A stretch of DNA of 64,000 nucleotides, from NCBI GenBank assembly GCA_002842925.1, contig PHEL01000001.1, positions 6,691 through 70,690 on the forward strand, written 5' to 3'. The notes under the pieces are model-generated. The model was not told the origin of the DNA. It did no database searches and saw only the letters and a program-made list of their open reading frames with translations. How positions within the stretch are numbered: the first letter of the stretch is position 1; every line of letters starts with the position of its first letter. The position numbers and the translations under genes are program-made. Positions 14,427 through 62,330 of the stretch are shown piece by piece. The stretch comes from Alphaproteobacteria bacterium HGW-Alphaproteobacteria-14. Its GTDB lineage: Bacteria; Pseudomonadota; Alphaproteobacteria; Sphingomonadales; Sphingomonadaceae.

Positions 14427-14702
14427 ATGCAAAATCCAACAATGGGCCGCCAGATTATCCGCTGGGGATGGACGCTTAGCGTTTTCATTCTGCTGAGCTT
14501 TCTAGTCTATATTGCGTTCGGCCTGCTGATGCCCGGACGCTTCCACATGCATGAGGCGTGGGCGCCGCTGCTGCCGGGGTTTGAGTGGCTGACATGGCCC
14601 GGCTTTATCGCAGGCGCGGTCGGTAGCTTTCTCTATGGCTGGTATATCGCCGTATTGATCGTTCCGCTTTATCGCTTCTTCGGGCGCGGGCAGCCGTCAT
14701 GA
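14427..14702 (+). CDS. Small membrane protein (DUF5676-like)
   Basis: [24 protein letters not shown]...YGWY; RBS AAGGGAG; coupled to the ATPase. Confidence 0.75.
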
Positions 14703-17014
14703 GCGGCTATATTTGTCCCATGCACCCTGAAGTCCGGCAGGACGAGCCGGGCGACTGTCCGAAATGCGGAATGCATCTCGTACCGGACGACGGCCAGCAA
14801 AGCAGCACGCATTCCGAATGCCACGCTTCGCATGGCCAGAAGGAACACCAACCGAGCGATGGCAGCTATGATCAGGTGCCAGAGGGATACACCGGCACTG
14901 TCTATACCTGCCCGATGCATCCACAGGTGCGCCAAACCAAAATGGGATCATGCCCGATCTGCGGTATGGGGCTGGAGCTGGAATCCGCCAGCATGGTGGA
15001 GGACGGCCCCAATCCGGAGCTGGTCGATTTTACCAGGCGTTTCTGGGTCGGCGCCATTCTCACTATACCGTTGCTAATTCTGACCATGGGGCCATTCGTT
15101 GGTCTTGGCGGTATCCGCGAGGCGTTAGGTGAGCGAACAACGCTGTGGATCGAATTTGCGCTCGGAACGCCGGTAGTCCTGTGGTGCGGCTGGCCGTTCC
15201 TTGTCCGCGGCTGGAATTCCTTCCGGACAATGAACCTCAATATGTTCTCGCTCATCGCAATGGGGGTTATGGCGGCGTGGCTGTTCAGCATTGTCGCTGT
15301 GCTTGTCCCGGGCATCTTCCCTGACGGTTTTCGCGATGCAGAAGGTAATGTCGCGGTCTATTTCGAAGCTGCCGCAGTGATCGTCACTCTGGTCCTGCTG
15401 GGACAGGTTATGGAGCTGCGCGCCCGCGAAGGCACCGGCAAGGCCATCCGCGCCCTGCTCGACCTTGCAGCGAAGACCGCACATGTCATCCGGCCCGATG
15501 GTACTGAAGAAGAAATCGAGCTGGAGGACGTCCAGGTGGGCGACCACCTACGCGTCCGGCCCGGTGACAAGGTTCCGGTCGATGGCACTGTACTGGAAGG
15601 ACGGTCTTCCATTGATGAGAGCATGGTGTCGGGCGAACCTGTGCCAATTGAAAAAGTCGCTGGCGATCAAATTACCGGTGCGACCATCAACGGCACCGGG
15701 AGTCTGGTGATGGAGGCGACCCGTGTCGGTTCGGACACGATGCTGGCGCAAATCGTCCAGATGGTCGCGAACGCTCAACGCTCGCGCGCGCCGATCCAGA
15801 AATATGCCGACAAAGTTGCAGGCTGGTTCGTTCCAGCGGTGATCGGCATTGCCGTGCTGGCCTTTATCGCTTGGGCAATCTGGGGACCTGCTCCGGCGCT
15901 CGCCTATGCCCTGATCGCGGCCGTCTCGGTCCTGATCATTGCCTGCCCCTGCGCATTGGGCCTCGCCACGCCGATGTCGATCATGACCGCAACGGGGCGC
16001 GGTGCGCAGGCAGGCGTTCTGATCAAGAATGCCGAGGCGCTCGAACGCTTCGAGACGATCGATACGCTGATCGTCGACAAGACCGGCACGCTGACCGAGG
16101 GCAAGCCCCGGCTGGTCGCCGTGATGCCGGAGGATGGGCATGACGAGGCGGAAGTGCTGCATCTTGCAGCCTCGCTTGAACGCGGGTCGGAACATCCGCT
16201 GGCCGAAGCAATCGTGCGCGGTGCGGAGGAGCGCGGCGCTGCAATGGATAACGCGAGCGACTTCGAAGCCATCACTGGCAAGGGGGTCACGGGCAAAGTT
16301 GGCGGCCGGTCCGTTGCCCTTGGTAACCTCGCGTTGATAAATGACATGGGTCTCGAAGCAGCAGCGCTGACGCAGAAGGCCAACGCCAGACGCGACGAAG
16401 GCGAGACGGTGATGTTTGTCGTAGTCGATGGCACCATCGCTGGTCTCGTCGCGGTGGCCGATCCGGTAAAGGAAACCACCCCTGCGGCGCTCAAAGAACT
16501 GCACGCTCTGGGCCTGCGCATCATTATGGCAACCGGTGACAACGAACGGACGGCCAAGGCAGTTGCCGCGCGGCTTGGTATTGATGAAATCCGCGCCGAT
16601 ATTCTGCCCGAAGACAAGGCCCGCATCATTCGCGAGCTCCAGGCCGAAGGCGCGAAAGTTGCGATGGCCGGAGACGGTGTCAACGATGCGCCAGCGCTCG
16701 CGCAAGCAGATGTCGGAATCGCGATGGGCACCGGGGCGGATGTGGCAATCGAAAGCGCCGGAATAACGTTGGTCCGCGGCAATCTCGATGGGATCGTGCG
16801 CGCTCGCCGCCTTGCGAAGGCGACGATGGGCAACATCCGTCAGAACCTGTTCTTTGCATTGATCTACAACGCGGCCGGGGTGCCAGTCGCAGCTGGTTTG
16901 CTCTATCCGTTCTTTGGCATCCTGATCAGCCCGATGTTTGCCGCCTTCGCCATGAGCGCATCCTCCATCTCGGTGGTCCTCAATTCGCTGCGGCTGCGGA
17001 CCGCAAAATTGTGA
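14699..17014 (+). CDS. Cu(I)-translocating P1B-type ATPase with N-terminal YxCPMHP metal-binding domains
   Basis: Two YxCPMHP domains, [44 protein letters not shown]. Confidence 0.95.
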
Positions 17015-18408: not shown

Positions 18409-18859
18409 ACCCATTTTTCACCGACTCGATAAACCCGAAACATGGATTGCTATTCACGGCTTTCTTGTCTCGTTCGCCTGGGAAATGTTCCAGATGCCGT
18501 TCTATGCAATGGATCAACTGTCGGCGTGGCAAGTTACGAAGAGCTGCGGCATTGCTTCGGTGGGTGATGCCGGAATAATGGTATTCGCCTACTGGATCGC
18601 GACAATTGCAACCGGCGATCGCTTGTGGCTTCGAGATGCGCGCGCCCGACCCCTCACAGTATATTTAGGCACCGGGCTGTCGATTACGATAGTCGTCGAA
18701 CACTTGGCGCTCCGCAGCGATTGGGGCTGGCAATATGATGACACAATGCCGTTAATCGGTGGCGTAGGGCTGGTGCCATTGGTCATGTGGATCATTGTGC
18801 CATTGGTAACGATGAAACTGGCAGAGCGATCGGTCGTGCACAGCGGGTCGGCGCCGTAA
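18374..18859 (+). CDS. Hypothetical multi-pass membrane protein (start uncertain)
   Basis: FAWEMFQMPFY...GDA...WQYDDTMPLIGGVGLVPL; four hydrophobic segments. Confidence 0.65.
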   Translation: MVQRRWGRTITEPIFHRLDKPETWIAIHGFLVSFAWEMFQMPFYAMDQLSAWQVTKSCGIASVGDAGIMVFAYWIATIATGDRLWLRDARARPLTVYLGTGLSITIVVEHLALRSDWGWQYDDTMPLIGGVGLVPLVMWIIVPLVTMKLAERSVVHSGSAP

Positions 18860-18976
18860 GCAGATTAGAAAATCGACGAGCTAATTCTCTCAATTGCGTA
18901 CACCATGCTGACGGCCAGTGAGTTGCGGGCGTTCGGTTTCGGAGTGTAGGCACGGGTCGAGCTTTGCGCTGGAGCG

Positions 18977-19608
18977 GGGGAAGGCCTTCCCCTGAGCCGG
19001 AGCCGCTTTGCTGTCTCCTGCTACCCCTTCTGCGGGGACACCCCGCAACGCCCCGGTAAGCGGAGCGGGGCTGATGACGCGCTCTGTCCCGCGCATCTGA
19101 CGATGCGCTCCTGAGGGCGCGCTAGTGTTTGTTCCGGGCCCCGCGCGCACTCTGATTGCAGCTTACATTGTCATGAGGATCGGCCTGCCGGACGACAGGC
19201 CCCGCCGGGGCGGCCGATCCCGAGACTGGCACCACACGCTTCCATTCAGGGTGCGCATTTCTTGTCTTGAGAACCTCGCTGGTCGCTCGGCCCCGATTCG
19301 CGGCATGAGCAGGTTGCGGCGGACGGCGCGCGGACGTGATTTCGAGTGAAATGGGACATTTCACGGTCCCGGAAATCACGCGACAAACACTGCGCGCCGG
19401 CGTTGTTGGTGTCGGCCCGCGAAAGTGGCGGGGTGGGCGGCGCTCCCGTCTAGGCACGGTCCGGCCAGCCGCAACCCGGCCCTGCGGGTCCGGGTCTTCC
19501 ATTGCATTGCAGCCCTTTTCCGACCGGCTGAATTGACAACCATTTGCGTCATGCGGGTGCGGCTGTCCGGACCGCACCTTTCTGGTCGCAGTCACCGCCC
19601 ACCCCGCC
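18977..19608 (+). promoter_or_regulatory. Non-coding, hairpin-dense region upstream of ardC; candidate ssDNA (Frpo/ssi-like) promoter elements
   Basis: Perfect inverted repeats: GGGGAAGGCCTTCCCC 18977-92; AGTGTTTGT 19124 / ACAAACACT 19383; CGTGATTTC 19335 / GAAATCACG 19372; GGCGGGGTGGGCGG 19427 / CCGCCCACCCCGCC 19595. TTGACA at 19533. Confidence 0.6.
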
Positions 19609-19655
19609 CCTTCCGGGGGCCGGTGTGCGGATTTGGGCAGTTCGGGAGAAGGGCG

Positions 19656-20633
19656 ATGGCGCGTAAAGTTTCAAAAGGCAGAGCAGGTGGCAGGCGTAGA
19701 GGGGCGGCGCGCAGCGCCGCGCGCGGGAATGGCTCCCGCGCATCGCTTTATGATGAGGTCACGCAAACAATCATTGCCCAGCTTGAGGGCGGCGTGTTTC
19801 CTTGGGTCAGGCCGTGGAGCAAGGCCAAGGCCTCGCCCGGCCTGCCATGCAATGCGGTGACCAAGCGGGCTTACTCTGGGATCAATGTGCTGGTCCTGTG
19901 GGGCGCGGTGATCGAGGGCGGCTATCCTTCGCAGGACTGGCTGACCTTTCGCCAAGCGCTGGCCGCGGGCGGCTGCGTCCGCAAGGGCGAGCGCGGGCGC
20001 ACGGTGTTCTATGCCGACCGCTTCACCCCGAAAGGCGACCGCGACGGGCATGGGCGCGAGCAGGTCGAGAGCGGCGAGGAGGCGCGCTCGATACCGTTTC
20101 TCAAGCGCTTTACCGTGTTTAATGCCGCGCAATGCGATGGCTTGCCCGAAGGGCTGGTGTCGCAGCCAGCGCCGCTGCCCGAACGCGAATTGCACCGCGC
20201 TGCCGAAGGCCTGATTGCCGCGACGGGAGCGGATTTCCGGATTGGCGGGGCGCAGGCTTACTATTCGCCATCCGGCGATTTCGTGATGGTGCCGCCGCAA
20301 CCGGCCTTTCATCACCAGATCGACTATTACCGCACCGCTCTGCACGAGCTGGGCCACTGGACCGGTCACGGCTCGCGGTTGGGCCGCGACCAGACCGGAC
20401 GGTTCGGCTCTGCGCCCTATGCGCGCGAAGAACTGGTTGCCGAACTGGCCTCGGCGTTTCTGTGCGCTGCGCTCGGCATCGAACCCACGGTGCGCCATGC
20501 CGATTACTTGGGCAGTTGGCTTGAAGTGCTGCGCGCAGACAATCGCGCGATTTTCCGCGCCGCCAGTCAGGCGAGCAAGTCCGCCGAGTTCCTGCTGCAT
20601 TGTCAGCCGAACGAACGGGAGCAGGCGGCATGA
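19656..20633 (+). CDS. ardC: ArdC/DUF1738 ssDNA-binding antirestriction protein with zincin-like domain
   Basis: LYDEVTQTIIAQLE-G-FPWVRPW, YSGINVLVLW, VRKGERG, TALHELGHWTGH, YAREELVAEL. Start moved to 19656. Confidence 0.93.
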   Translation: MARKVSKGRAGGRRRGAARSAARGNGSRASLYDEVTQTIIAQLEGGVFPWVRPWSKAKASPGLPCNAVTKRAYSGINVLVLWGAVIEGGYPSQDWLTFRQALAAGGCVRKGERGRTVFYADRFTPKGDRDGHGREQVESGEEARSIPFLKRFTVFNAAQCDGLPEGLVSQPAPLPERELHRAAEGLIAATGADFRIGGAQAYYSPSGDFVMVPPQPAFHHQIDYYRTALHELGHWTGHGSRLGRDQTGRFGSAPYAREELVAELASAFLCAALGIEPTVRHADYLGSWLEVLRADNRAIFRAASQASKSAEFLLHCQPNEREQAA

Positions 20634-20848
20634 GCAGGGCAAACGATCCCAGCGCGCCGCCGCGCGCCTTCGAGGCCGAGGACACCGAGGCCGGTGCGCA
20701 GACGCTGGTTCCCGGCGTTGCGCCAGTTACGCTGGGCGAGCGGCTTGGCCTCCTCGCCAATGCGCCGCTGCTGCCGCGCAAGGGTCAGCGCCCCGCCAAT
20801 CACGGGCTGTTCGACACGAACGCCCGCAACCAGCTCGAAATGTTCTGA
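20630..20848 (+). CDS. 72-aa protein ending in a beta-clamp-binding-like motif (QLEMF)
   Basis: ATGA overlap with ardC; ends GLFDTNARNQLEMF-stop. Confidence 0.7.
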   Translation: MSRANDPSAPPRAFEAEDTEAGAQTLVPGVAPVTLGERLGLLANAPLLPRKGQRPANHGLFDTNARNQLEMF

Positions 20849-20862
20849 CCGGAGGCGATGCA

Positions 20863-21264
20863 ATGGACTTTCTCACCCAATCCTTGCGCGAGCGCCTGTT
20901 GGCCAATGGTCGATGCGAGGCCGACCATGTGCCCCTCGTCAAATTGTTCAATCCGATTGGCGCGGCGACCTGGCTGTTTACCGAACTCGGCAGCGATGGC
21001 GATACTCTGTTCGGGCTGTGCGATCTCGGTTTCGGCTTTCCCGAACTGGGCTGCGCAAGCCTGTCGGAAATCGCCTCGGTGCGCCTGCCGCTGGGCCTCA
21101 GGATCGAGCGCGATGTGCATTTTGCCGCCGAGCATCCGCTCTCGGTCTATGCCGAGGCGGCGCGGTTTTGCGGCCAGATCACCGAGCACCCCGACCATTT
21201 GACCCGCGCGGCAGCGGCGCTGGCGCGCGCCGGAGAGTCAGGGCGAAGCCGTTCACCGCCGTAG
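20863..21264 (+). CDS. DUF2958 family protein
   Basis: PLVKLFNPIGAATWLFTEL..DGDTLFGLCDLGFGFPELG...LRIERD; RBS GGAGG. Confidence 0.88.
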   Translation: MDFLTQSLRERLLANGRCEADHVPLVKLFNPIGAATWLFTELGSDGDTLFGLCDLGFGFPELGCASLSEIASVRLPLGLRIERDVHFAAEHPLSVYAEAARFCGQITEHPDHLTRAAAALARAGESGRSRSPP

Positions 21265-21283
21265 CCCCAACCGGCGGATGATG

Positions 21284-21366
21284 CCCGCATCGGACCCGTC
21301 CCTTCGATGCGGGACACACCGGCCCCGCCTTCCGCCTCCCAAGCCCCCCGACCGGAGGGCGGGGCC
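21284..21366. promoter_or_regulatory. Two GC-rich hairpins upstream of the parB-like gene
   Basis: CCCGCATCG 21284 / CGATGCGGG 21305; GGCCCCGCCTTCCG 21321 / CGGAGGGCGGGGCC 21353. Confidence 0.55.
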
Positions 21367-21396
21367 ACCCTATCCAAGAGTGAATGAACAGGAGTA

Positions 21397-23196
21397 TTGA
21401 CCATGCAGATCGACCATATTCCGCTGGACCGTCTTTCGGTCTCCCCCATCAATATGCGGCGCGGGCGCAAGACCCCCGATGTCAGCGACATACTGCCTTC
21501 GGTGAAGGCGCGCGGCGTGCTCTCGCCGCTGTTCGTGCGGGCAAATGGCAAGCCCGACCATTTCGAGATTCTGGCAGGCAAGCGCCGCTATTTCGCCAGT
21601 ATCGAAGCCGCCAAGGAAAGCGGCGAGGAGCGCAATCTGCCGTGTATCGTCATCGGCGAAGGTGATGATGCCGAAGCGCTCGAAATCTCGATGATCGAGA
21701 ACCTGCTGCGGCAGGACCCCGACGAGGTCACCCAGTGGGAAAGCTTCACCCGCCTCGTGAAGGAAGGCCGCAGCCTCGAGGATATTGCCGCGACCTTCGC
21801 GCTTACCGAATTGCAGGTGAAGCGCATCCTCGCGCTCGGCAATCTTCTGCCCCGCATCCGCGAGGCCTACCGCGCCGAAGAAATTGACGCTGCAACCGTC
21901 CGCCATCTGACGCTCGCCAGCAAGGCGCAGCAGAAGGCATGGCTGGCGCTGTTCGAGGACGCGGAGGCCTATGCCCCGCGCGGCAGTCAGCTCAAAGGGT
22001 GGCTGTTTGGTGGCGCGTCGATTGCGACCGGTGTCGCGCTGTTCGACCTTGAGACCTATTCCGGCCAGATCGTTGCCGATCTGTTTGGCGAGGACGGCTA
22101 TTTCGCCGACAGCGATGCCTTCTGGGCCGCGCAGATGGCCGCAATCGATGCGCGCAAGGCCGACTATCTCGAAGCAGGCTGGGCCGATGTCGTGATCGTC
22201 CCGCCAAACGAGCATTTTGCCAGTTGGGAGTATGAACACGCCTCCAAGCGCAAGGGCGGGCGCGTCTATATCCAGTGCCGCGCCAATGGCGAGGTTGTGC
22301 TCCACGAGGGCTTTGTCAGCCGCCGCGAAGCGCAGGCGGCGGAGCGCCGTGCGCGCGGCGAGGACGGGGACACCAAGCCCGCACGGCCCGAACTGACCTC
22401 GACGCTGGCAAGCTATATCGACCTCCACCGCCATTCTGCGGTGAGCGAGCGGCTCTCGACCGCGCCGTCGCTGGCGCTGCGCGTCATGGTCGCTCATGCC
22501 ATTGCCGGTTCGCCGCTGTGGAGCATCCGCCCCGCCGATACAGCAAGCCGCAACGAGAAAATTGCGGAGAGCCTTGCCGCCAGCCCCGCAACCAAGGCTA
22601 TGGCCGGACGCCGCTGCGCAATGCTTGATTTGCTGGGTTTCGATGAAAGCCGCGAGGCGCTGTGTCAGGACCGTTACGGCAGCGACCTTGTTCCGATCCT
22701 CCATCGGCTTTTGAAGCTGGAGGATGGCGAGGTCATGCAGGTGCTCGCACTGGTCATGGCTGAAACCCTCGCCATCGGCAGCGAGGCCGTCGAATATCTT
22801 GGCCAGCATATGGGCGTGGAGATGGCCGATCACTGGCAGGCCGACGAAGCTTTTTTCGGCCTGCTGCGCGACAAGGAGGTAATGGTTGCGCTGCTTGGCG
22901 AGGTCGGCGGCGAGGCGGTGGCCAGCGCCAATGCGACCGAGAAAGGCGCAACGCTCAAAGGCCTGATCTCCGATCACCTGACCGGCGCGAACGAGCGGCC
23001 CAAGGCCGAGCGCTGGGTGCCGCGCTGGATGGCCTTCCCGCCTGATGCCTATACATCGCGTGGCGGAGTGCCGAGCGTAGCCGCTGCGAAGCGCGCGGCT
23101 TGGCTGGTCGAAGGCGAGGAGGATGAACCGGAAGGCGCGGACCTCGGTTCGGAAGACCATCAAGACACGCCGGAAGCCGACCCGCTCGCGGCCTGA
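21397..23196 (+). CDS. ParB/RepB/Spo0J-domain ICE protein
   Basis: N-terminal ParBc domain (NMRRG, GVLSPLFVR, ILAGKRRYFA, SMIENLLR), HTH, long C-terminal region ending WVPRWMAFPP. Confidence 0.88.
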   Translation: MTMQIDHIPLDRLSVSPINMRRGRKTPDVSDILPSVKARGVLSPLFVRANGKPDHFEILAGKRRYFASIEAAKESGEERNLPCIVIGEGDDAEALEISMIENLLRQDPDEVTQWESFTRLVKEGRSLEDIAATFALTELQVKRILALGNLLPRIREAYRAEEIDAATVRHLTLASKAQQKAWLALFEDAEAYAPRGSQLKGWLFGGASIATGVALFDLETYSGQIVADLFGEDGYFADSDAFWAAQMAAIDARKADYLEAGWADVVIVPPNEHFASWEYEHASKRKGGRVYIQCRANGEVVLHEGFVSRREAQAAERRARGEDGDTKPARPELTSTLASYIDLHRHSAVSERLSTAPSLALRVMVAHAIAGSPLWSIRPADTASRNEKIAESLAASPATKAMAGRRCAMLDLLGFDESREALCQDRYGSDLVPILHRLLKLEDGEVMQVLALVMAETLAIGSEAVEYLGQHMGVEMADHWQADEAFFGLLRDKEVMVALLGEVGGEAVASANATEKGATLKGLISDHLTGANERPKAERWVPRWMAFPPDAYTSRGGVPSVAAAKRAAWLVEGEEDEPEGADLGSEDHQDTPEADPLAA

Positions 23197-23211
23197 CCCA
23201 GCGCTTCTCAA

Positions 23212-23246
23212 AATGCGGGCAGCGGGACGGTCCCCCTGCCCGCATT
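23212..23246 (+). terminator. Stem-loop after the parB-like gene
   Basis: AATGCGGGCAG 23212-22 / CTGCCCGCATT 23236-46. Confidence 0.6.
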
Positions 23247-23347
23247 GTGCATCGGGGCGCTTGGTTGTATTGGTTGGCCATCGAAAAAGCACCGTGGAGG
23301 AGGTCGGGAGGTGCGTCCGGCGAATGTTCGCCATGAAAGGACGCCCC

Positions 23348-23788
23348 ATGATTGTCATTGCCGCCCTCACCGTGCTCGTCGCTGCCGTGCTGGCAGCGCG
23401 CCTGCTCTATTCGCTCTCACTCTACGCCCTGCCGCTCTGGTGCGGCGGGACAGTCGCTTGGTGGACTTTTGCCAGCGGGGCGGGCTGGCCGCTTGCGGCC
23501 TGTGCCGGACTGGCAGCTGCCACACTGCTGCTGGTTGCCGCCCATCTGCTCGCCGGTGCGCGCTCCCCTGTTTTGCGACTCGTGCCGGTTGCAGGCTTCG
23601 GCCTGTGCGGCGGAGTGGCGGGCTATCATGCGGCGCATGGCCTTACCCTTGCTTTCCTACCCGATGGCCTGATCGTCCAGGGGCTGAGCCTCGCGGCAGC
23701 CATGCTGATCGGGAGCGCTGCGGCCCTGCGCTGGCTCGCCGTTCGCGGTGGCGCTACCCCATCGCCGAACCCGCCATCATGGGTGTAA
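23348..23788 (+). CDS. Hypothetical membrane protein
   Basis: RBS GAAAGGA then ATG 23348; 4-5 hydrophobic helices; GYHAAHG. Confidence 0.65.
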   Translation: MIVIAALTVLVAAVLAARLLYSLSLYALPLWCGGTVAWWTFASGAGWPLAACAGLAAATLLLVAAHLLAGARSPVLRLVPVAGFGLCGGVAGYHAAHGLTLAFLPDGLIVQGLSLAAAMLIGSAAALRWLAVRGGATPSPNPPSWV

Positions 23789-24117
23789 GTCGTTTGCCGG
23801 ACTGGGCGATTGTCGGAACCGGCTCTTCCTCGATAATGCGCTGACATGGCCCAACTGGCTGTCAGCAGCGATGGTCGCTGATCCGAAACGCGGACGGGCA
23901 ATTTGCGAGCCTGATGTTCACTGACTTCGATTCCGTGCAACCTGCGGCACCCCACAGGGCGATCACTTTTTGCCCGATACTAACCCGCTCAAGGTAAGTA
24001 CGCCGATTGGTGTCCTGATCCGCCGTTTTCGCATGGCGTCACCTGCCCCACCTGCTGCCTCGTGCATGGCCTTTCTGGCGGCGGACGGGCTTCGCCCTTG
24101 CGGGGCTTCGGGGCGCA

Positions 24118-24198
24118 ACGGCGCGGGATCGGCTATTTTCCGCCGGGCACCGGGGTGCCCTTTGCATCGCGAAACAAAATAGCCGCTCCCGCTGCCGT
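24118..24198. promoter_or_regulatory. About 80-nt branched fold-back upstream of DUF736
   Basis: CGGCTATTTT 24130 / AAAATAGCCG 24176; inner GGGCACC 24145 / GGTGCCC 24154; outer ACGGC-GCGGGA / TCCCGC-GCCGT. Confidence 0.6.
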
Positions 24199-24313
24199 CC
24201 TTCGCTGTCGCTACGGTCCCTGACGGGATGCGCCCGCCCCGCACAACCGCCCTTGCATGGCCATCGAGGCTGCGATGGGCGCAGGTTCGAACCAAAGCGA
24301 AAGGAATTTCATC

Positions 24314-24637
24314 ATGGCCAATATCGGCAACTTCACCACCACGGGCACCGGCTACAAGGGCGAGATCGTCACCATGAGCGTGCAGCAGAAGAATGTGCGC
24401 ATCGTCGCCGAAAGCGAACAAGCAAGCGAGAACGCTCCCTCGCACCGGGTCTTCGTCGGCCGCGCCGAAATCGGTGCCGCCTGGAGCAAGCAGAGCCAGG
24501 AAGGCCGCGACTATCTCTCGGTCAAGCTCGACGACCCAAGCTTCGTCGCTCCGATCTACGCGAACCTTTTCGCCGAAGATGATGGCGAGAATTTCAGCCT
24601 GATCTGGACCCGCAGCCGCAAGGTCAATGGCGAGTAA
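24314..24637 (+). CDS. DUF736 family protein (copy 1)
   Basis: MANIGNF...APSHRVFVGRAEIGAAW...YLSVKLDDPSFVAPIYANL...LIWTR. Confidence 0.92.
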   Translation: MANIGNFTTTGTGYKGEIVTMSVQQKNVRIVAESEQASENAPSHRVFVGRAEIGAAWSKQSQEGRDYLSVKLDDPSFVAPIYANLFAEDDGENFSLIWTRSRKVNGE

Positions 24638-24650
24638 CCGCCGCAAGGCT

Positions 24651-24678
24651 GCCCCGCCCGGCACACGCCGGGCGGGGC
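24651..24678 (+). terminator. Perfect 12-bp hairpin after DUF736
   Basis: GCCCCGCCCGGC-ACAC-GCCGGGCGGGGC followed by TT. Confidence 0.7.
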
Positions 24679-24814
24679 TTCGTCCGTGAAAGGTCCGTAT
24701 GGCGAACCGACAGATCAGGTATGGGACGCACAGCTAACGACCCAAGCGCCAACGCTGGCAATAAATGCTCGTTTTCCGATAGTTCGTCAGGGTGAGATAG
24801 CTCGAAAAGCGCGC

Positions 24815-25093
24815 TCAACGATAAAATTCGACCTTAAATTGTACGGGGCCAATCGGCCTGACGAAATGCACCTGTCGAGGCTCGATAATGACGTGCTCAC
24901 CGGTGTTAACGGCATGGACTTGAGCCGGTTCCCCCGGAACGTGGTATTCAATGCTACCAGCGATCACGCAAAGCTTGCCCCAAACTCCGGCCTTGAGGTC
25001 GTGCTTTGAGGTGATCTTTTCAGGAACCGTCTGTTCGCTAAAAAGCGGTGTTTCCGAATACTTGTGAACACCATCTGGCATTACCTTCGACAT
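24815..25093 (-). CDS. DUF1971 (YeaR / TehB N-terminal-like) protein
   Basis: YSETPLFSEQTVPEKITSKHDLKAGVWGKLCVIAG...IEPRQVHFV...FKVEFY. Confidence 0.85.
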   Translation of the reverse strand: MSKVMPDGVHKYSETPLFSEQTVPEKITSKHDLKAGVWGKLCVIAGSIEYHVPGEPAQVHAVNTGEHVIIEPRQVHFVRPIGPVQFKVEFYR

Positions 25094-25095
25094 GC

Positions 25096-25554
25096 CTATT
25101 CTCCGATCCCGACAAAGACGGTAATGATCAGTATCGCAACGCCAAATAGGGCGACCGCGAACGGCACGATCAAAATCTGACCATAAACTGCTGTTTTGTC
25201 CATCAGCCCCGTCCAGGTATCGAGCATCTTGCCTTGTTCGAGCGGTGACTTGGCTTCTTGCCCTGCCTGACGAGCGCCAATCCGCGCCACCCCGAAATAG
25301 ACTGCGGTGTAAAGCACGGAAATCACGATAGCGAAACGTGCCGAAACGCTGTCACCCGTCGCCGCGAAAATAGTGGCAAAGAACACCGCATAGCAGGACA
25401 GCATCGCTGCCCAAACGCCGCGCGGCAGTTGGAACCCAGGATTCTGTGGCGCGACAGGCGGTGCGGCCAGGGGCTGAAGTATGCTATCCAGCGGCTGAAG
25501 TTCCGCCTCCAGATCGGCTTCCCGTTCGGCTACAATCGATTGCTGTTCAAACAT
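25096..25554 (-). CDS. Hypothetical membrane protein
   Basis: Overlaps the haemoglobin stop; three hydrophobic segments; LDTWTG motif. Confidence 0.7.
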   Translation of the reverse strand: MFEQQSIVAEREADLEAELQPLDSILQPLAAPPVAPQNPGFQLPRGVWAAMLSCYAVFFATIFAATGDSVSARFAIVISVLYTAVYFGVARIGARQAGQEAKSPLEQGKMLDTWTGLMDKTAVYGQILIVPFAVALFGVAILIITVFVGIGE

Positions 25555-26026
25555 GGGGGAGGTTCCTTCCTGCTTTGGTTCCGGAGATCCCGTCTCGCCG
25601 GATCGTGATCCCTGTAAGGAGACTGTCGGCGATGGCGCGCGCCCGTTCGGCGACAAGCGCAGTGCCTTCCGGCTGCGGTCCGAGCGCGTCTAAAGTTGCG
25701 TAGAAAAGCTCGAGCCAGCGCACGAAATGGGATTCCTCAAGACCAGGGATCGCCATGTGCTTGACCATCGGGTTTCCTGAGAACTCTCCGCTATTGAAGA
25801 GGATGGAGCGCCAAAAGGTTTTCATCCGTTCCAGATGCGGGGGCCAATCAGAGATACGCTCTGCGAAGATGGGAGCGAGCAGTTCATCCTCCCGAATATT
25901 GGCGTAGAAGCGCTCCACCATGAGCGATACGAAACGCTCATCGACACCCAGTGCCACGGCATGTGCGCGTTTCTCTGCCCTTGCCGCGTGTACTTGCTCT
26001 CGTGATTTCTCGGTTGTGGTATGCAT
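25547..26026 (-). CDS. Group III truncated haemoglobin
   Basis: VERFYANIREDELLAPIF, DWPPHLERMKTFWRS, FSGNPMVKH, HFVRWLELF. Confidence 0.92.
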   Translation of the reverse strand: MHTTTEKSREQVHAARAEKRAHAVALGVDERFVSLMVERFYANIREDELLAPIFAERISDWPPHLERMKTFWRSILFNSGEFSGNPMVKHMAIPGLEESHFVRWLELFYATLDALGPQPEGTALVAERARAIADSLLTGITIRRDGISGTKAGRNLPHV

Positions 26027-26041
26027 CTGGAACGCTCTCTT

Positions 26042-26105
26042 AAGAGGTATTTGATATACCTGTTAAAGCGTCTTGGAGAGAAAAGCAATATTTGATATAC
26101 CTGTT
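26042..26105. promoter_or_regulatory. NsrR-type operator, partly duplicated as a 17-bp direct repeat
   Basis: AAGAGGTAT-TTGAT-ATACCTGTT (26042-64); TATTTGATATACCTGTT occurs exactly at 26048 and 26089. Confidence 0.75.
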
Positions 26106-26107
26106 TT

Positions 26108-26542
26108 ATGCAGTTAAACCTTCGAACAGATTATGCCTTGCGAATGCTGATGGCCCTCGCCGCCAAGGATGAGGTGGTGTCGATCGACTGGCTGGCCGAT
26201 CATTATGGCATCTCGCGCAATCATCTTGCCAAGGTTGCGCAAGAGCTGGTCGCGGCAGGCTATGTCGCCTCGCTGCGAGGAAGGGGTGGCGGGCTACGAC
26301 TGGCGCGGCCCCCAGCAGAGATAAACGTGGGCGAGGTGGTCCGGAGATTGGAGAATCTCACGGGCTTCGTGGCTTGCATGGGGGGCAAGGAGAACTGCGC
26401 CATTGACGGTGTCTGCGGCCTAAAACCTGCGCTCGCTGGCGCTATCGACGCCTTTCTGACGCATCTCGATCAATTTGATCTTGCACAGATTACAGCGTCA
26501 AAGTCCCGGCTGCTTCGTCAATTGAATCCGGAAGAGGCCTGA
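26108..26542 (+). CDS. nsrR: Rrf2-family regulator, NsrR-like
   Basis: MQLNLRTDYALRMLM, ISRNHLAKV, RGRGGGLRLAR, three Cys (FVACM, ENCAI, VCGLK). Confidence 0.85.
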   Translation: MQLNLRTDYALRMLMALAAKDEVVSIDWLADHYGISRNHLAKVAQELVAAGYVASLRGRGGGLRLARPPAEINVGEVVRRLENLTGFVACMGGKENCAIDGVCGLKPALAGAIDAFLTHLDQFDLAQITASKSRLLRQLNPEEA

Positions 26543-26618
26543 GCCAAGTATTGCCCGCCTTCCACTCGTTTTCAGCCGTTTGAAACGCCATTTGCGCAGC
26601 CCGAAAGCGGACACCCCG

Positions 26619-26849
26619 CTAAGTTGCCAGTTTGTCGCCTTCCGCAGTTTCAAGCAATTCCGCGGGCTCGATACCTAACTCGACTGCCAGCTTTTCGATC
26701 ACATCCAGCGTTGCGGCATACTGACAGCGCTCAAGGCTGCTGACATAGGTCCGGTCGATCTGTGCGCGATGGGCAAGTTCTTCCTGCGACAGGCCGACCG
26801 CTTTTCGATAGCGGCGCAAATTGGCAGCAAAGGTCTCGCGCAGGGTCAT
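26619..26849 (-). CDS. XRE-family HTH regulator, QseC-like
   Basis: FAANLRRYRKAVGLSQEELAHRAQIDRTYVSSLER; divergent from the qseM-like gene. Confidence 0.85.
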   Translation of the reverse strand: MTLRETFAANLRRYRKAVGLSQEELAHRAQIDRTYVSSLERCQYAATLDVIEKLAVELGIEPAELLETAEGDKLAT

Positions 26850-26870
26850 GCTGGCGAGTGAGCGGGATTG

Positions 26871-26899
26871 CAGAGTATTTAACCACGGAGTATACTCTG
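26871..26899. promoter_or_regulatory. Candidate XRE/QseC operator
   Basis: CAGAGTAT-N13-ATACTCTG, 22 bp upstream of the XRE start codon. Confidence 0.55.
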
Positions 26900-27044
26900 A
26901 ATGAAAGTAGGTATGTGCTAATTTCGCGAAAAGCTTTGAAACTCAGCGGCTTTTGTCGTGCGCCCCGTTAGCCTCAATTGGAATATCGCATTACCTGTTT
27001 GGGGATAAGCGGCATAGCTAAGAGTGGCGAAGGATTTCGTGCTA

Positions 27045-27078
27045 AAAGCAAGCCCGAAAGCAAGCCCGAAAGCAAGCG
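27045..27078. repeat. 12-bp tandem repeat (about 2.8 copies) upstream of the qseM-like gene
   Basis: AAAGCAAGCCCG AAAGCAAGCCCG AAAGCAAGCG. Confidence 0.9.
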
Positions 27079-27097
27079 AGTCGAAACCGAGCTGACC

Positions 27098-27358
27098 ATG
27101 ACTGAGACCCCTGCCTTCCAGGACCTTCCGCCGCTGTCCGAACACGTCACGGACTATGATGAAGCGCATTTCGTCACCTATCTGCGCCTGCTTGATGCCG
27201 CTGCGGAAGGCGCGGATTGGCGCGAAGTTGTCCGACTTGTGTTTGGCCTCGATCCCGCTGACGACCCAGACGCAGCGCGCGCGATGCACGCGGCGCACCT
27301 CGAGCGCGCACGATGGATGGCGCGTAGTGGCTACAGGCAATTGATCGCGAAGGATTAA
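27098..27358 (+). CDS. qseM: Small DUF2285 protein, QseM-like antiactivator
   Basis: VTDYDEAHFVTYLRLLDA..EGADW.E....FGLDP..DP..AR....HLERARWM...GY closely resembles QseM as recalled. Start moved to 27098. Confidence 0.8.
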   Translation: MTETPAFQDLPPLSEHVTDYDEAHFVTYLRLLDAAAEGADWREVVRLVFGLDPADDPDAARAMHAAHLERARWMARSGYRQLIAKD

Positions 27359-27518
27359 TTGCGAGCCAATTTCAACTTTGTGCAATTCTAGGTAATTTCA
27401 CGCGTCTGCTTGTACCGCCGCGAAGAGCAGCAAAGAGAAGATTCGGATACTTCCCGATTCTTCAATTCTCTCAAACGTTTCAGTCTGGCCAAGCTGCCCT
27501 CTACCAAAGGAGGTTGCA

Positions 27519-28305
27519 ATGTCGGGAGAAGGCTCCTGGCGCTCAGCCGATTATGCCGAGCGCTTCGAGACCCATGACCATGCGGATTTCGCGCAGGAAT
27601 TCTTGCGCCGCAACCCCGACTATGCCCGCGAATACACTCAAACAGAGCAACGCGCACTTGCCGCTCTGGCAAACGCACAGGAAGAAAGTGAGGGCCTGGC
27701 TCGGCGATGGGGCCTGAGCTTTCCCCTGCGATCCGAACAAATCCGCGAAGGATGAACCGGCGCATTGGTCGCCCGAGGTGCTGGGGACGACGATCATCCA
27801 GACGGGAGTCGAGCCTGCCAAACGCCTGCTCTCGGACCTTTCCTGGATTGGGGTTCATAGATGTGCTTGTTCGGACGGACTGCACTACGTTCTGACCAGC
27901 ACCTTTGGCCGCTACCGGCTGTGGCAATCGGATCTGGCAGTCGGTCTTTCACGTGCCTTCCTTGTACCAGACGACGCATTCGCCTCCATGCGATCCGAGG
28001 CCCTTTATCGCTTCCAGCTTGCGCGCGCAGGTCGCCGGGCTGCGCTCCAAACCTCCAATATCTCCCCTAGCGAATACCAGCGCCGCAGGCTGGCCAACAT
28101 GCTGGCGATGCTCGACGGGCGCGAAGCCGGTGCCACCATCCGTGAGCTTGCCTTCACGCTCGTCTATCCCAATTCCCGCCTTCTTAGAGGCGCTGAATGG
28201 AAGGCCTCGGGCGAAAAACGCCATGTGCTGCGCCTCCTCAAATCAGCGCTGAATTTGCGCGGCGGCGGCTACCGCGCCTTTCCCGGTTTCGACCGCTCCA
28301 TCTGA
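27519..28305 (+). CDS. fseA: DUF6499-DUF2285 activator (FseA-like), about 261 aa via +1 frameshift; appears as two ORFs, 27519-27755 and 27778-28305
   Basis: ORF1 has W.S...Y...FAQEFLRRNPDY (DUF6499-like); ORF2 has RLANMLAMLDG..AGATIRELA...W (DUF2285-like). The +1 frame is open from the slip site into ORF2. Confidence 0.8.
27705..27725 (+). other. Programmed +1 ribosomal frameshift site
   Basis: CGA.TGG.GGC.CTG.AGC.TTT.CCC fits the msi172-type consensus as recalled, SRV.TGG.GGN.NTN.NNN.TTT.CSY. Confidence 0.8.
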
Positions 28306-28426
28306 TGGGGGGGACAGCTTTGGCCACCTCCCTTTGGTCACTCCCTTCGCCGCGCCACCTTGCTCCATCTCACTCCGCAACCAGCAGCACTGCGCTGCAG
28401 CAACCTGTCTCAAGCGGAGATATTCC

Positions 28427-62255: not shown

Positions 62256-62330
62256 TGGAGCGGGCGAGGCGATTCGAACGCCCGACCCCAACCTTGGCAA
62301 GGTTGTGCTCTACCCCTGAGCTACGCCCGC
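62256..62330 (-). tRNA. tRNA-Gly(GCC), 75 nt, CCA encoded; likely integration site
   Basis: Reverse complement GCGGGCGTAGCTCAGGGGTAGAGCACAACCTTGCCAAGGTTGGGGTCGGGCGTTCGAATCGCCTCGCCCGCTCCA folds as a cloverleaf with anticodon GCC. Confidence 0.98.

Follow-up and report, generated by a model that had tools for sequence, protein, structure and literature searches.

The DNA analysed here, a stretch of 64,000 nucleotides (nt) from Alphaproteobacteria bacterium HGW-Alphaproteobacteria-14 (contig PHEL01000001.1), is called the window below and provides all coordinates given without a prefix. It belongs to an integrative conjugative element (ICE) of the Tn4371/ICEMlSymR7A type in an alphaproteobacterial host. 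One end of the element is a tRNA-Gly(gcc) gene (62256-62330, minus strand) and the other a 3' tRNA-Gly fragment located beside the tyrosine integrase, 1.4 kb to the left of the window. The integrase side is filled with about 19 kb of metal-resistance cargo, comprising an RND system, a P-type ATPase (14699-17014), a permease and an open reading frame (ORF) ending at 18859. A gap of about 800 bp (18860-19655) separates this cargo from ardC, which is followed by a small ORF, a ParB-like gene, RepA, DUF2840, TraF, an SLT gene, the relaxase gene (about 31.9-33.9 kb), TraG and the Trb operon. The ardC gene itself (19656-20633, plus strand) encodes an ArdcN domain and a zincin metallopeptidase (Pfam PF08401, 3e-40, and PF18818, 6e-52), and the nearest relatives of its locus are found in Erythrobacter and other Sphingomonadales. 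It is the first gene of an establishment operon (ardC, small ORF, ParB-like gene), and the gap is the composite leader that serves this operon. ArdC is reportedly required in the recipient (PMC7213743). Two long ORFs covering the gap, one on the minus strand (19122-19595) and one extending ardC from 19425, were rejected as coding sequences because homologues carry frame-breaking indels and the frames are not conserved.

A sequence-only reading of this DNA had described the gap as a single fold-back array that might hold single-stranded promoters. Comparison with relatives reveals instead a mosaic of independently distributed modules, named here from left to right M1a, M1b, Mb, P-a (with an insertion, Mc, in its loop) and Md. 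Md is a 215-nt fold-back on the minus strand (19411-19625) located next to ardC. Its basal arms of 28 nt (19413-19440 and 19595-19622) contain as their core the 14-bp perfect repeat that had been noticed as closing a unit at 19427/19608. A second stem (19452-19476 and 19555-19579) is separated from them by a conserved asymmetric internal loop, and the apex is a three-way structure with a variable insert (19515-19553). Md is found ahead of ArdC in 77-80 of the 80 homologous loci, truncated contigs being counted, at amino-acid identities of 58-96%. In one genome devoid of ardC, it precedes an operon made of a small ORF, DUF2958 and parB.

The conservation of Md extends to its base pairs. Over 14 homologues and 53 consensus pairs, 94.4% of the cells are paired, compared with 79.1% in shuffles, and 29 pairs show compensatory double changes where 16.6 are expected; none of 500 shuffles reached these values. 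Slid registers give covariation scores no higher than 0.096, the true register 0.416. Even the near-invariant basal arms (GGGTGGGCGG/CCGCCCACCC) vary in concert, as GGGAGGGCGG/CCGCCCTCCC and GGGGGGCG/CGCCCCCC. The compensation across ICE homologues that the sequence-only reading had proposed to look for is thus strong in Md, and in M1a it is found in the second hairpin, the first and third being invariant. The folding of both strands as single-stranded DNA (ssDNA), also proposed there, gives for the whole gap z = -4.6 on the plus strand and z = -7.1 on the minus strand relative to shuffles. The minus strand of Md alone folds at -75.9 kcal/mol and surpasses all 297 segments of equal size in the 64-kb sequence.

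A second property of Md is the asymmetry between its strands. The minus strand is the more stable in 14 of 14 homologues, by 3.2-12.2 kcal/mol with DNA parameters and 3.2-22.1 kcal/mol with RNA parameters, for a baseline difference of -0.07 +/- 3.7 over the 297 segments of this sequence. The alifold consensus of 38 sequences below 90% identity gives -57.7 for the minus strand versus -34.2 for the plus strand. Wobble pairs were counted solely among pairs predicted on both strands, which avoids the bias of a prediction made on one strand. G-T wobbles on the minus strand (A-C on the plus strand) occupy 24 cells in 17 columns, compared with 5 cells in 2 columns for G-T on the plus strand (binomial p of about 7e-4 by our own arithmetic, in a test that counts related sequences). 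Base composition does not explain this asymmetry, since the plus strand of Md is slightly richer in G+T. As a positive control, the Frpo2 (upstream of ssb) and Frpo1 elements of the F plasmid favour the template, or transferred (T), strand by 7.5 and 11.1 kcal/mol, respectively. The internal negative controls, namely M1b+Mb and M1c, an alternative leader of ardC and DUF932 described below, favour the plus strand. The asymmetry indicates that the structure of Md belongs to the strand complementary to ardC mRNA; judging by the alignments, selection has favoured its formation on the minus strand. In the region from ardC to repA (20634-28360), the eight intergenic GC hairpins also show a slight minus-strand advantage (8/8; 0.1-3.3 kcal/mol, DNA parameters), the opposite of the sign that plus-strand terminators would predict.

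A structure selected on the minus strand and overlying the would-be 5' untranslated region of ardC could also be that of an antisense RNA, comparable to FinP, which would pair with the ardC leader and control its translation or stability. This explanation is hardly credible. On the right of Md, no conserved minus-strand promoter was detected, the weak matches being scattered at differing positions in 7 of 29 homologues, and the sequence there encodes the variable N-terminal part of ArdC. On the minus strand, the structure is not followed by a T-tract. The Rfam search suggested by the sequence-only reading returned no family on either strand: between 18800 and 19700, down to E = 10, the sole matches were chance ones of the microRNA type, and the homologous loci gave none.

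The relaxase gene normally enters the recipient last in well-studied systems. In ICEMlSymR7A, the origin of transfer (oriT) is located downstream of rdfS-traF-msi107 and upstream of rlxS (PMC11963761), an order that places the expected oriT and nick of the present element at about 31.9 kb, between the SLT gene and the relaxase gene. Given a nick near the relaxase gene and the late entry of this gene, the minus strand, template of ardC, would be the T-strand. The genes from ardC to repA would then constitute the leading 12 kb and be transcribed toward oriT with the T-strand as template, an arrangement that is the one of the Frpo-controlled genes (PMC9849209; PMC11541004). The orientation already noticed from the sequence holds: ardC, the ParB-like gene and most backbone genes face the junction between the SLT and relaxase genes.

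The alphaproteobacterial sigma-70 consensus is TTGACGS-N10-14-GCTANAWC in Caulobacter and CTTGAC-N17-CTATAT in rhizobia. The distal arm of Md on the minus strand (complement of about 19448-19475) carries a conserved TTGCGN-N16-TAGNNG at fixed spacing which resembles it. More precisely, this arm reads GGGTTGCG(G/C)C, then, 16 nt after TTGCGN, (C/T)AGNNG, followed by GGAGCGCCGCCCACCCC. The TTG is contained in the stem and the TAG is found at the edge of the conserved asymmetric internal loop. In the duplex, the corresponding places of the plus strand read GGTGCG and CTTTCT. A stringent scan of both strands for sigma-70-like promoters detected none in this leader or in those of 29 homologues. The boxes first pointed out are not conserved, this weak pair being the only one kept on the appropriate arm; indeed, the perfect TTGACA at 19533 belongs to an apical insert of the closest relatives and is altered already in a homologue 94% identical (GAACAGTCAGCC).

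These properties lead us to propose that Md may be a single-stranded-DNA promoter or priming element, similar to Frpo in its logic and founding a new family, a reading to which, from comparative sequence evidence, we grant slightly less than an even chance. The ICE would arrive as minus-strand ssDNA, and Md would fold into an imperfect hairpin of about 200 nt whose distal arm would act as the non-template strand of a pseudo-duplex promoter, with the -35-like TTGCGN in the stem and, 16 nt further, TAGNNG at the edge of the conserved internal bubble. Host RNA polymerase would bind this pseudo-duplex, start near 19585-19600 and exit at the hairpin base to transcribe ardC and the downstream genes. 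The outcome would be an early and transient expression of ardC, an RNA primer for complementary-strand synthesis, or both. Conversion to duplex would abolish the structure and leave a DNA with no recognisable promoter, which would amount to a switch-off. P-a, on the left, would shield Md and ardC from transcription reading through from the cargo or the tRNA.

The same strand-specific and covarying fold-back could serve priming alone. Md would then be a single-strand origin or initiation signal (sso/ssi) for the complementary strand of the ICE strand that is transferred or displaced by rolling-circle replication, with no promoter role for ardC. A weak -10 box suits recognition in some other way than as a promoter, and Frpo itself is reportedly both a promoter and a primer signal (Masai and Arai 1997). 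Another type of mobile genetic element (MGE), described below, carries M1b-Mb beside its expected oriT, after a terminator and with no promoter. We nevertheless consider this explanation improbable. In about 80 loci, the one without ardC among them, Md strictly occupies the place just before the first establishment gene, which a priming site would not need; moreover, no primase gene is seen beside it. No motif of the known sso types (RSB, CS-6) was seen, no search having been aimed at them.

The other end of the leader is occupied by M1a, an 80-nt motif with three hairpins (18974-19056, plus strand; 88.6 bits with the covariance model R1). The first hairpin, H1, is the palindrome GGGGAAGGCCTTCCCC (18978-18993), which the layout of the motif gives as GGGGAARGYYTTCCCC. 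H2 is a covarying hairpin of 8 bp here (18996-19003 and 19016-19023) and of 7-8 bp across copies. It is followed by the linker ACCCCTTCT, of invariant form ACCCC(T/A)TCT. H3 is GCGGGG-ACA-CCCCGC (19033-19047), a case of the general palindrome GCGGGG-N3-CCCCGC, and the motif is completed by the tail AACGCCCC. H1 and H3, together with GCGCATC-TGAC-GATGCGC in M1b (19092-19109), are the three short hairpins noticed initially, at coordinates that differ by 1 nt at most. Changes on both sides affect 6 of the 8 pairs of H2, H1 and H3 being invariant, and the variants of H2 are fully compensated (AGCCGGAG/CTCCGGCT, CGGCCGAG/CTCGGCCG, GCCGGCG/CGCCGGC, GTCGGCA/TGCCGAC and AACCGCC/GGCGTTT).

With model R1, M1a was detected in 43 copies in the 80 ArdC loci, every one co-oriented with ardC. 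Matches were obtained on 13 plasmids, in 13 of 400 genomes of the class and, in a sample of 400 genomes of the phylum, from Alphaproteobacteria only. The plasmids belong to Sphingobium, Novosphingobium, Haematobacter, Magnetospira, Mesorhizobium, Agrobacterium and others. The genes that follow are ardC, DUF932-like, ArdA-domain, ParB-like or DUF2958-like, which are classical establishment families. In eight ICEs, M1a is located 104-182 nt from the tRNA attachment site, a distance that makes it the outermost feature of the element. M1a is therefore a widespread alphaproteobacterial motif of the head of establishment operons, combining two invariant palindromes and one covarying hairpin. As far as sequence can tell, the two palindromes look like protein operators as much as hairpins. 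An arm site of the attP type was rejected for M1a, which lies near a tRNA in the eight ICEs and here and yet is found on plasmids far from any att site. A function as oriT or nic for M1a or M1b, suggested by words resembling TCCTG or GCGCCCT, was also discarded: these words are part of covarying stems, the oriT of this ICE family adjoins rlxS, and a nick at this place would send the wrong ardC strand into the recipient.

A second copy of M1a exists in this genome, at C17:5062-5144 on the minus strand. It is part of a tandem neighbour (C17:4830-5290, 1.4-1.9 kb to the left of the window) in which a second M1a-M1b-Mb copy with an M1c-type leader comes after the 3' tRNA-Gly fragment, on its strand, and is itself followed by a DUF932-like and then a ParB-like gene. 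The integrase of the ICE itself (L009:5435-6754) is located on the opposite side of the tRNA-Gly fragment. This arrangement suggests that a second element, whole or only as a remnant, shares the tRNA-Gly with the ICE in a tandem array. The establishment operon has a further conserved member as well. The small ORF after ardC (20630-20848) ends with NQLEMF and has a counterpart ending with NQIEMF (L018:1236-1487, minus strand) in a genome without ardC, where Md directly precedes it; the presence of this counterpart indicates that the micro-protein belongs to the conserved operon.

M1c, mentioned above, is a second conserved leader (GAGAGTGAGAGTGCGGACGG..CCGTGACGGGTTGAGGGCTGGAGGAGAGGCCTCCGGCGCCCGTCGCGGAGA-ATG) which replaces M1b-Mb-Md and fills the 85 nt between M1a and the start of ardC or DUF932 (L007, L010, L044, L051, L057, L064 and others). 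Its stems include invariant T-G wobbles on the plus strand, and one of them pairs GGAGG with CCTCC. These features suggest an mRNA leader with a possible role in translational control.

Behind M1a, M1b (19056-19155, plus strand) consists of the nested stems GCGGGGC/GCCCCGC and CGCGCTC/GAGGGCGCG, a conserved loop sequence (GCTCCTGAGGG) and the inner hairpin 19092-19109, for which the alignments provide the compensatory variants GCGCATC/GATGCGC, GCAGGCC/GGCCTGC and GCCCGCC/GGCGGGC. The structured middle module Mb (19156-19331, plus strand) contains the hairpin 19177-19220, inside which the inverted repeat GGATCGGCC/GGCCGATCC of the sequence-only reading is confirmed, a long-range stem (19145-19158 and 19243-19256) and the conserved sequence CTCGCTGGTCGCTCG. 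M1b is present in 33 and Mb in 32 of the 80 ArdC loci. Taken together, the two have their more stable fold on the plus strand in 22-24 of 28 non-redundant sequences and look like structures of the plus strand, at the RNA level. A structured non-coding RNA, the other alternative initially put forward, is possible for the M1a-Mb part.

M1b-Mb is also observed without M1a in the other MGE type (L039:1440-1760; L032, L033, L038, L040 and L042). It is located there right after an operon of ssb and a small acidic ORF with its strong terminator, and about 300 nt ahead of a small ORF and a TrwB-like coupling-protein (T4CP) gene, the position expected for an R388-like oriT. The chromosomal-looking copies resembling M1b were considered as transfer-messenger, 6S or signal recognition particle RNA genes, and this was rejected because their loci belong to this MGE (ssb ... 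T4CP).

Another explanation, which we judge unlikely, is conventional regulation of the duplex. A weak, non-canonical promoter would be controlled by a repressor bound to the M1a palindromes (GGGGAA-N4-TTCCCC and GCGGGG-N3-CCCCGC), and zygotic induction would result from the transient absence of this repressor, as with Reg576 of p576; the hairpins would be mRNA leader structures setting mRNA stability, termination (P-a) or translation. The invariance of H1 and H3, which show no covariation and in this resemble protein operators, agrees with it, as do the position of M1a at the head of several kinds of establishment operons and the better plus-strand folding of M1c and M1b+Mb. Some M1a copies carry CTGACA-N17-GATAGG just upstream of H1, as read from the alignment. 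The precedent of p576 extends to stabilising inverted repeats in the ardC576 leader (PMC6294495). On the other hand, Md is biased to the minus strand and not to that of the mRNA, and neither a conserved promoter nor a positional enrichment of promoter boxes was detected upstream of 61 M1a copies, nor a promoter elsewhere in the leader. Each element has one M1a, when the operators of a global repressor usually recur within an element. Finally, H2 covaries, so that base pairing is required.

The proposal of an ssDNA promoter or primer in Md has its own difficulties. The -10-like box is poor, T-A-G alone being conserved and the last position being always G, and no canonical -35/-10 pair is reconstituted in the stem, unlike in Frpo. 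Some 12 kb, including inserted cargo, separate ardC from the presumed oriT, and the probable identity of the transferred strand derives from gene order and from the comparison with ICEMlSymR7A. The ardC genes with the M1a-M1c leader have no Md and a plus-strand-biased structure, so that ardC does not generally come with a template-strand fold-back. Most of the interval 18977-19608 consists of M1a, M1b and Mb, which have no template-strand bias; the initial idea of ssDNA promoters therefore survives for Md, through its template-strand fold, its covariation and an asymmetry similar to that of F Frpo1 and Frpo2, and not for these three modules. A blastn comparison of F Frpo1 and Frpo2 with 18860-19655 yielded only short chance words (best E 0.16), far from the BLAST E <= 1e-6 by which Samuel et al. 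(2024) assign membership to the Frpo/ssi family (PMC11541004).

Two further features lie between Mb and Md. P-a (19325-19398, plus strand) is a GC hairpin whose arms, GGCGCGC (19325-19331) and GCGCGCC (19392-19398), form a stem that covaries in all homologues of the alignments. It is followed by the T-rich GGCGTTGTTGGTGT, a moderately T-rich tail for which a terminator scan made no call. P-a resembles a weak terminator, or an insulator that would separate Md from the modules upstream. Its loop is occupied in this window by Mc (19332-19391, on neither strand in particular), a dispersed nested hairpin (GTGATTTCGAGTGAAATGGGACATTTCACGG..GGAAATCAC) like the repetitive extragenic palindromic (REP) sequences. 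Mc is missing, with exact boundaries, from leaders otherwise 92-96% identical and is present in 7 of the 80 leaders only, and copies of 87-93% identity occur at unrelated intergenic sites in at least eight genomes of the family. With REP and other small dispersed hairpin repeats it shares a nested hairpin of about 46-60 nt, near-identical copies at unrelated intergenic sites and a presence/absence polymorphism; it differs from them in being single-copy in this genome, and neither a transposase nor a target duplication was identified. Within this leader, Mc is an incidental insertion of REP-like type. The nested hairpin repeat of about 46 nt (GAGTGATTTCGAGTGAAATGGAACATTTCACGGCTCGGAAATCACGGC) that it represents is dispersed in intergenic regions of Erythrobacteraceae-like genomes (L027, L028, L029, L034 and L041) at 1-2 copies per genome and may be a family-specific REP-like element.

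The presence of Mc accounts for part of what had been seen as a large nested unit closed at 19124/19391. The inverted repeats AGTGTTTGT/ACAAACACT (19124/19383) and CGTGATTTC/GAAATCACG (19335/19372) do exist, the latter belonging to the insertion. The closing stem is not conserved and must be fortuitous, as it is built from a right arm in Mc and a left arm in a variable spacer. A miniature inverted-repeat transposable element was rejected as an explanation for both nested units, because mobile-repeat behaviour is restricted to Mc; Md and Mb are single-copy and syntenic.

A broader proposal can be made, which we hold to be rather doubtful as a whole: alphaproteobacterial ICEs and plasmids would carry their own undescribed families of establishment control, with Md as a true ssDNA promoter or primer signal and M1a as a class-wide marker, jointly. 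Md may then be unrelated in sequence to Frpo and operate without a canonical -10 box, and M1a, with M1b-Mb, may be an ssDNA or RNA element of about 350 nt that marks the first gene expressed after transfer. An early expression of anti-restriction functions decides the survival of a conjugative element entering a new host. If Md works from ssDNA, this mode of transcription would extend past the enterobacterial plasmids to ICEs, including environmental ones with metal-resistance and catabolic cargo; the age and generality of the mechanism would have been underestimated, and its promoter architecture would tolerate a non-canonical -10 box. Whatever the mechanism, M1a and Md are easily searchable markers of the establishment end of alphaproteobacterial ICEs and plasmids, and the G-T/A-C strand test, calibrated on Frpo, offers a cheap route to further candidates.

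To our knowledge, the only characterised single-stranded promoters are the Frpo/ssi elements of F-like and I-type enterobacterial plasmids. Their logic has been described by Couturier et al. 2023 (PMC9849209) and Samuel et al. 2024 (PMC11541004). The 2024 survey of leading regions used as queries five enterobacterial Frpo/ssi sequences and canonical -35/-10 boxes (PMC11541004), so that it would have overlooked Md and GC-rich elements from other phyla. A literature search found no description of such elements for ardC or for ICEs.

The nearest precedent in duplex DNA is p576, together with pLS20, where the Reg576 repressor provides zygotic induction (Val-Calvo et al. 2018, PMC6294495). The likeness concerns a conserved motif at the promoters of establishment genes, ardC among them, a long ardC leader with inverted repeats and zygotic induction as the expected outcome. 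The operators there are short direct heptamers, 13 per plasmid, beside clear sigma-A promoters, whereas the present elements have one 80-nt motif each, with a covarying hairpin and no recognisable promoter.

Another comparison is provided by ssoA and ssoU of rolling-circle plasmids and by the sso of ICEBs1, which are structured non-coding regions of about 150-300 nt that prime the complementary strand from ssDNA in a strand- and orientation-specific manner. Md is likewise strand-specific, highly structured and non-coding, and differs from them by its fixed position before the first establishment gene.

The closest relationship is with the Frpo/ssi elements of F and ColIb-P9. Md is, like them, non-coding and located just upstream of oriT-facing establishment and anti-defence genes. 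It is a long, imperfect and stable fold-back, forms the long, stable ssDNA stem-loop that characterises the family, and folds better on the template strand, with an asymmetry that matches F Frpo1 and Frpo2 in sign and size. It differs by its length (about 200 nt versus about 330-480 nt), by the lack of a canonical -35/-10 pair and of sequence similarity, and by its setting, a GC-rich ICE of Alphaproteobacteria instead of an enterobacterial plasmid, at some 12 kb from the presumed oriT. The leading region of F (L161, record positions 53784-65259) contains DUF932, ParB-like, antirestriction and ssb genes, all facing oriT, and these protein families are those found after M1a and Md in the alphaproteobacterial elements. 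Md fails the sequence-based test of family membership and is like Frpo on every computable criterion save the canonical boxes.

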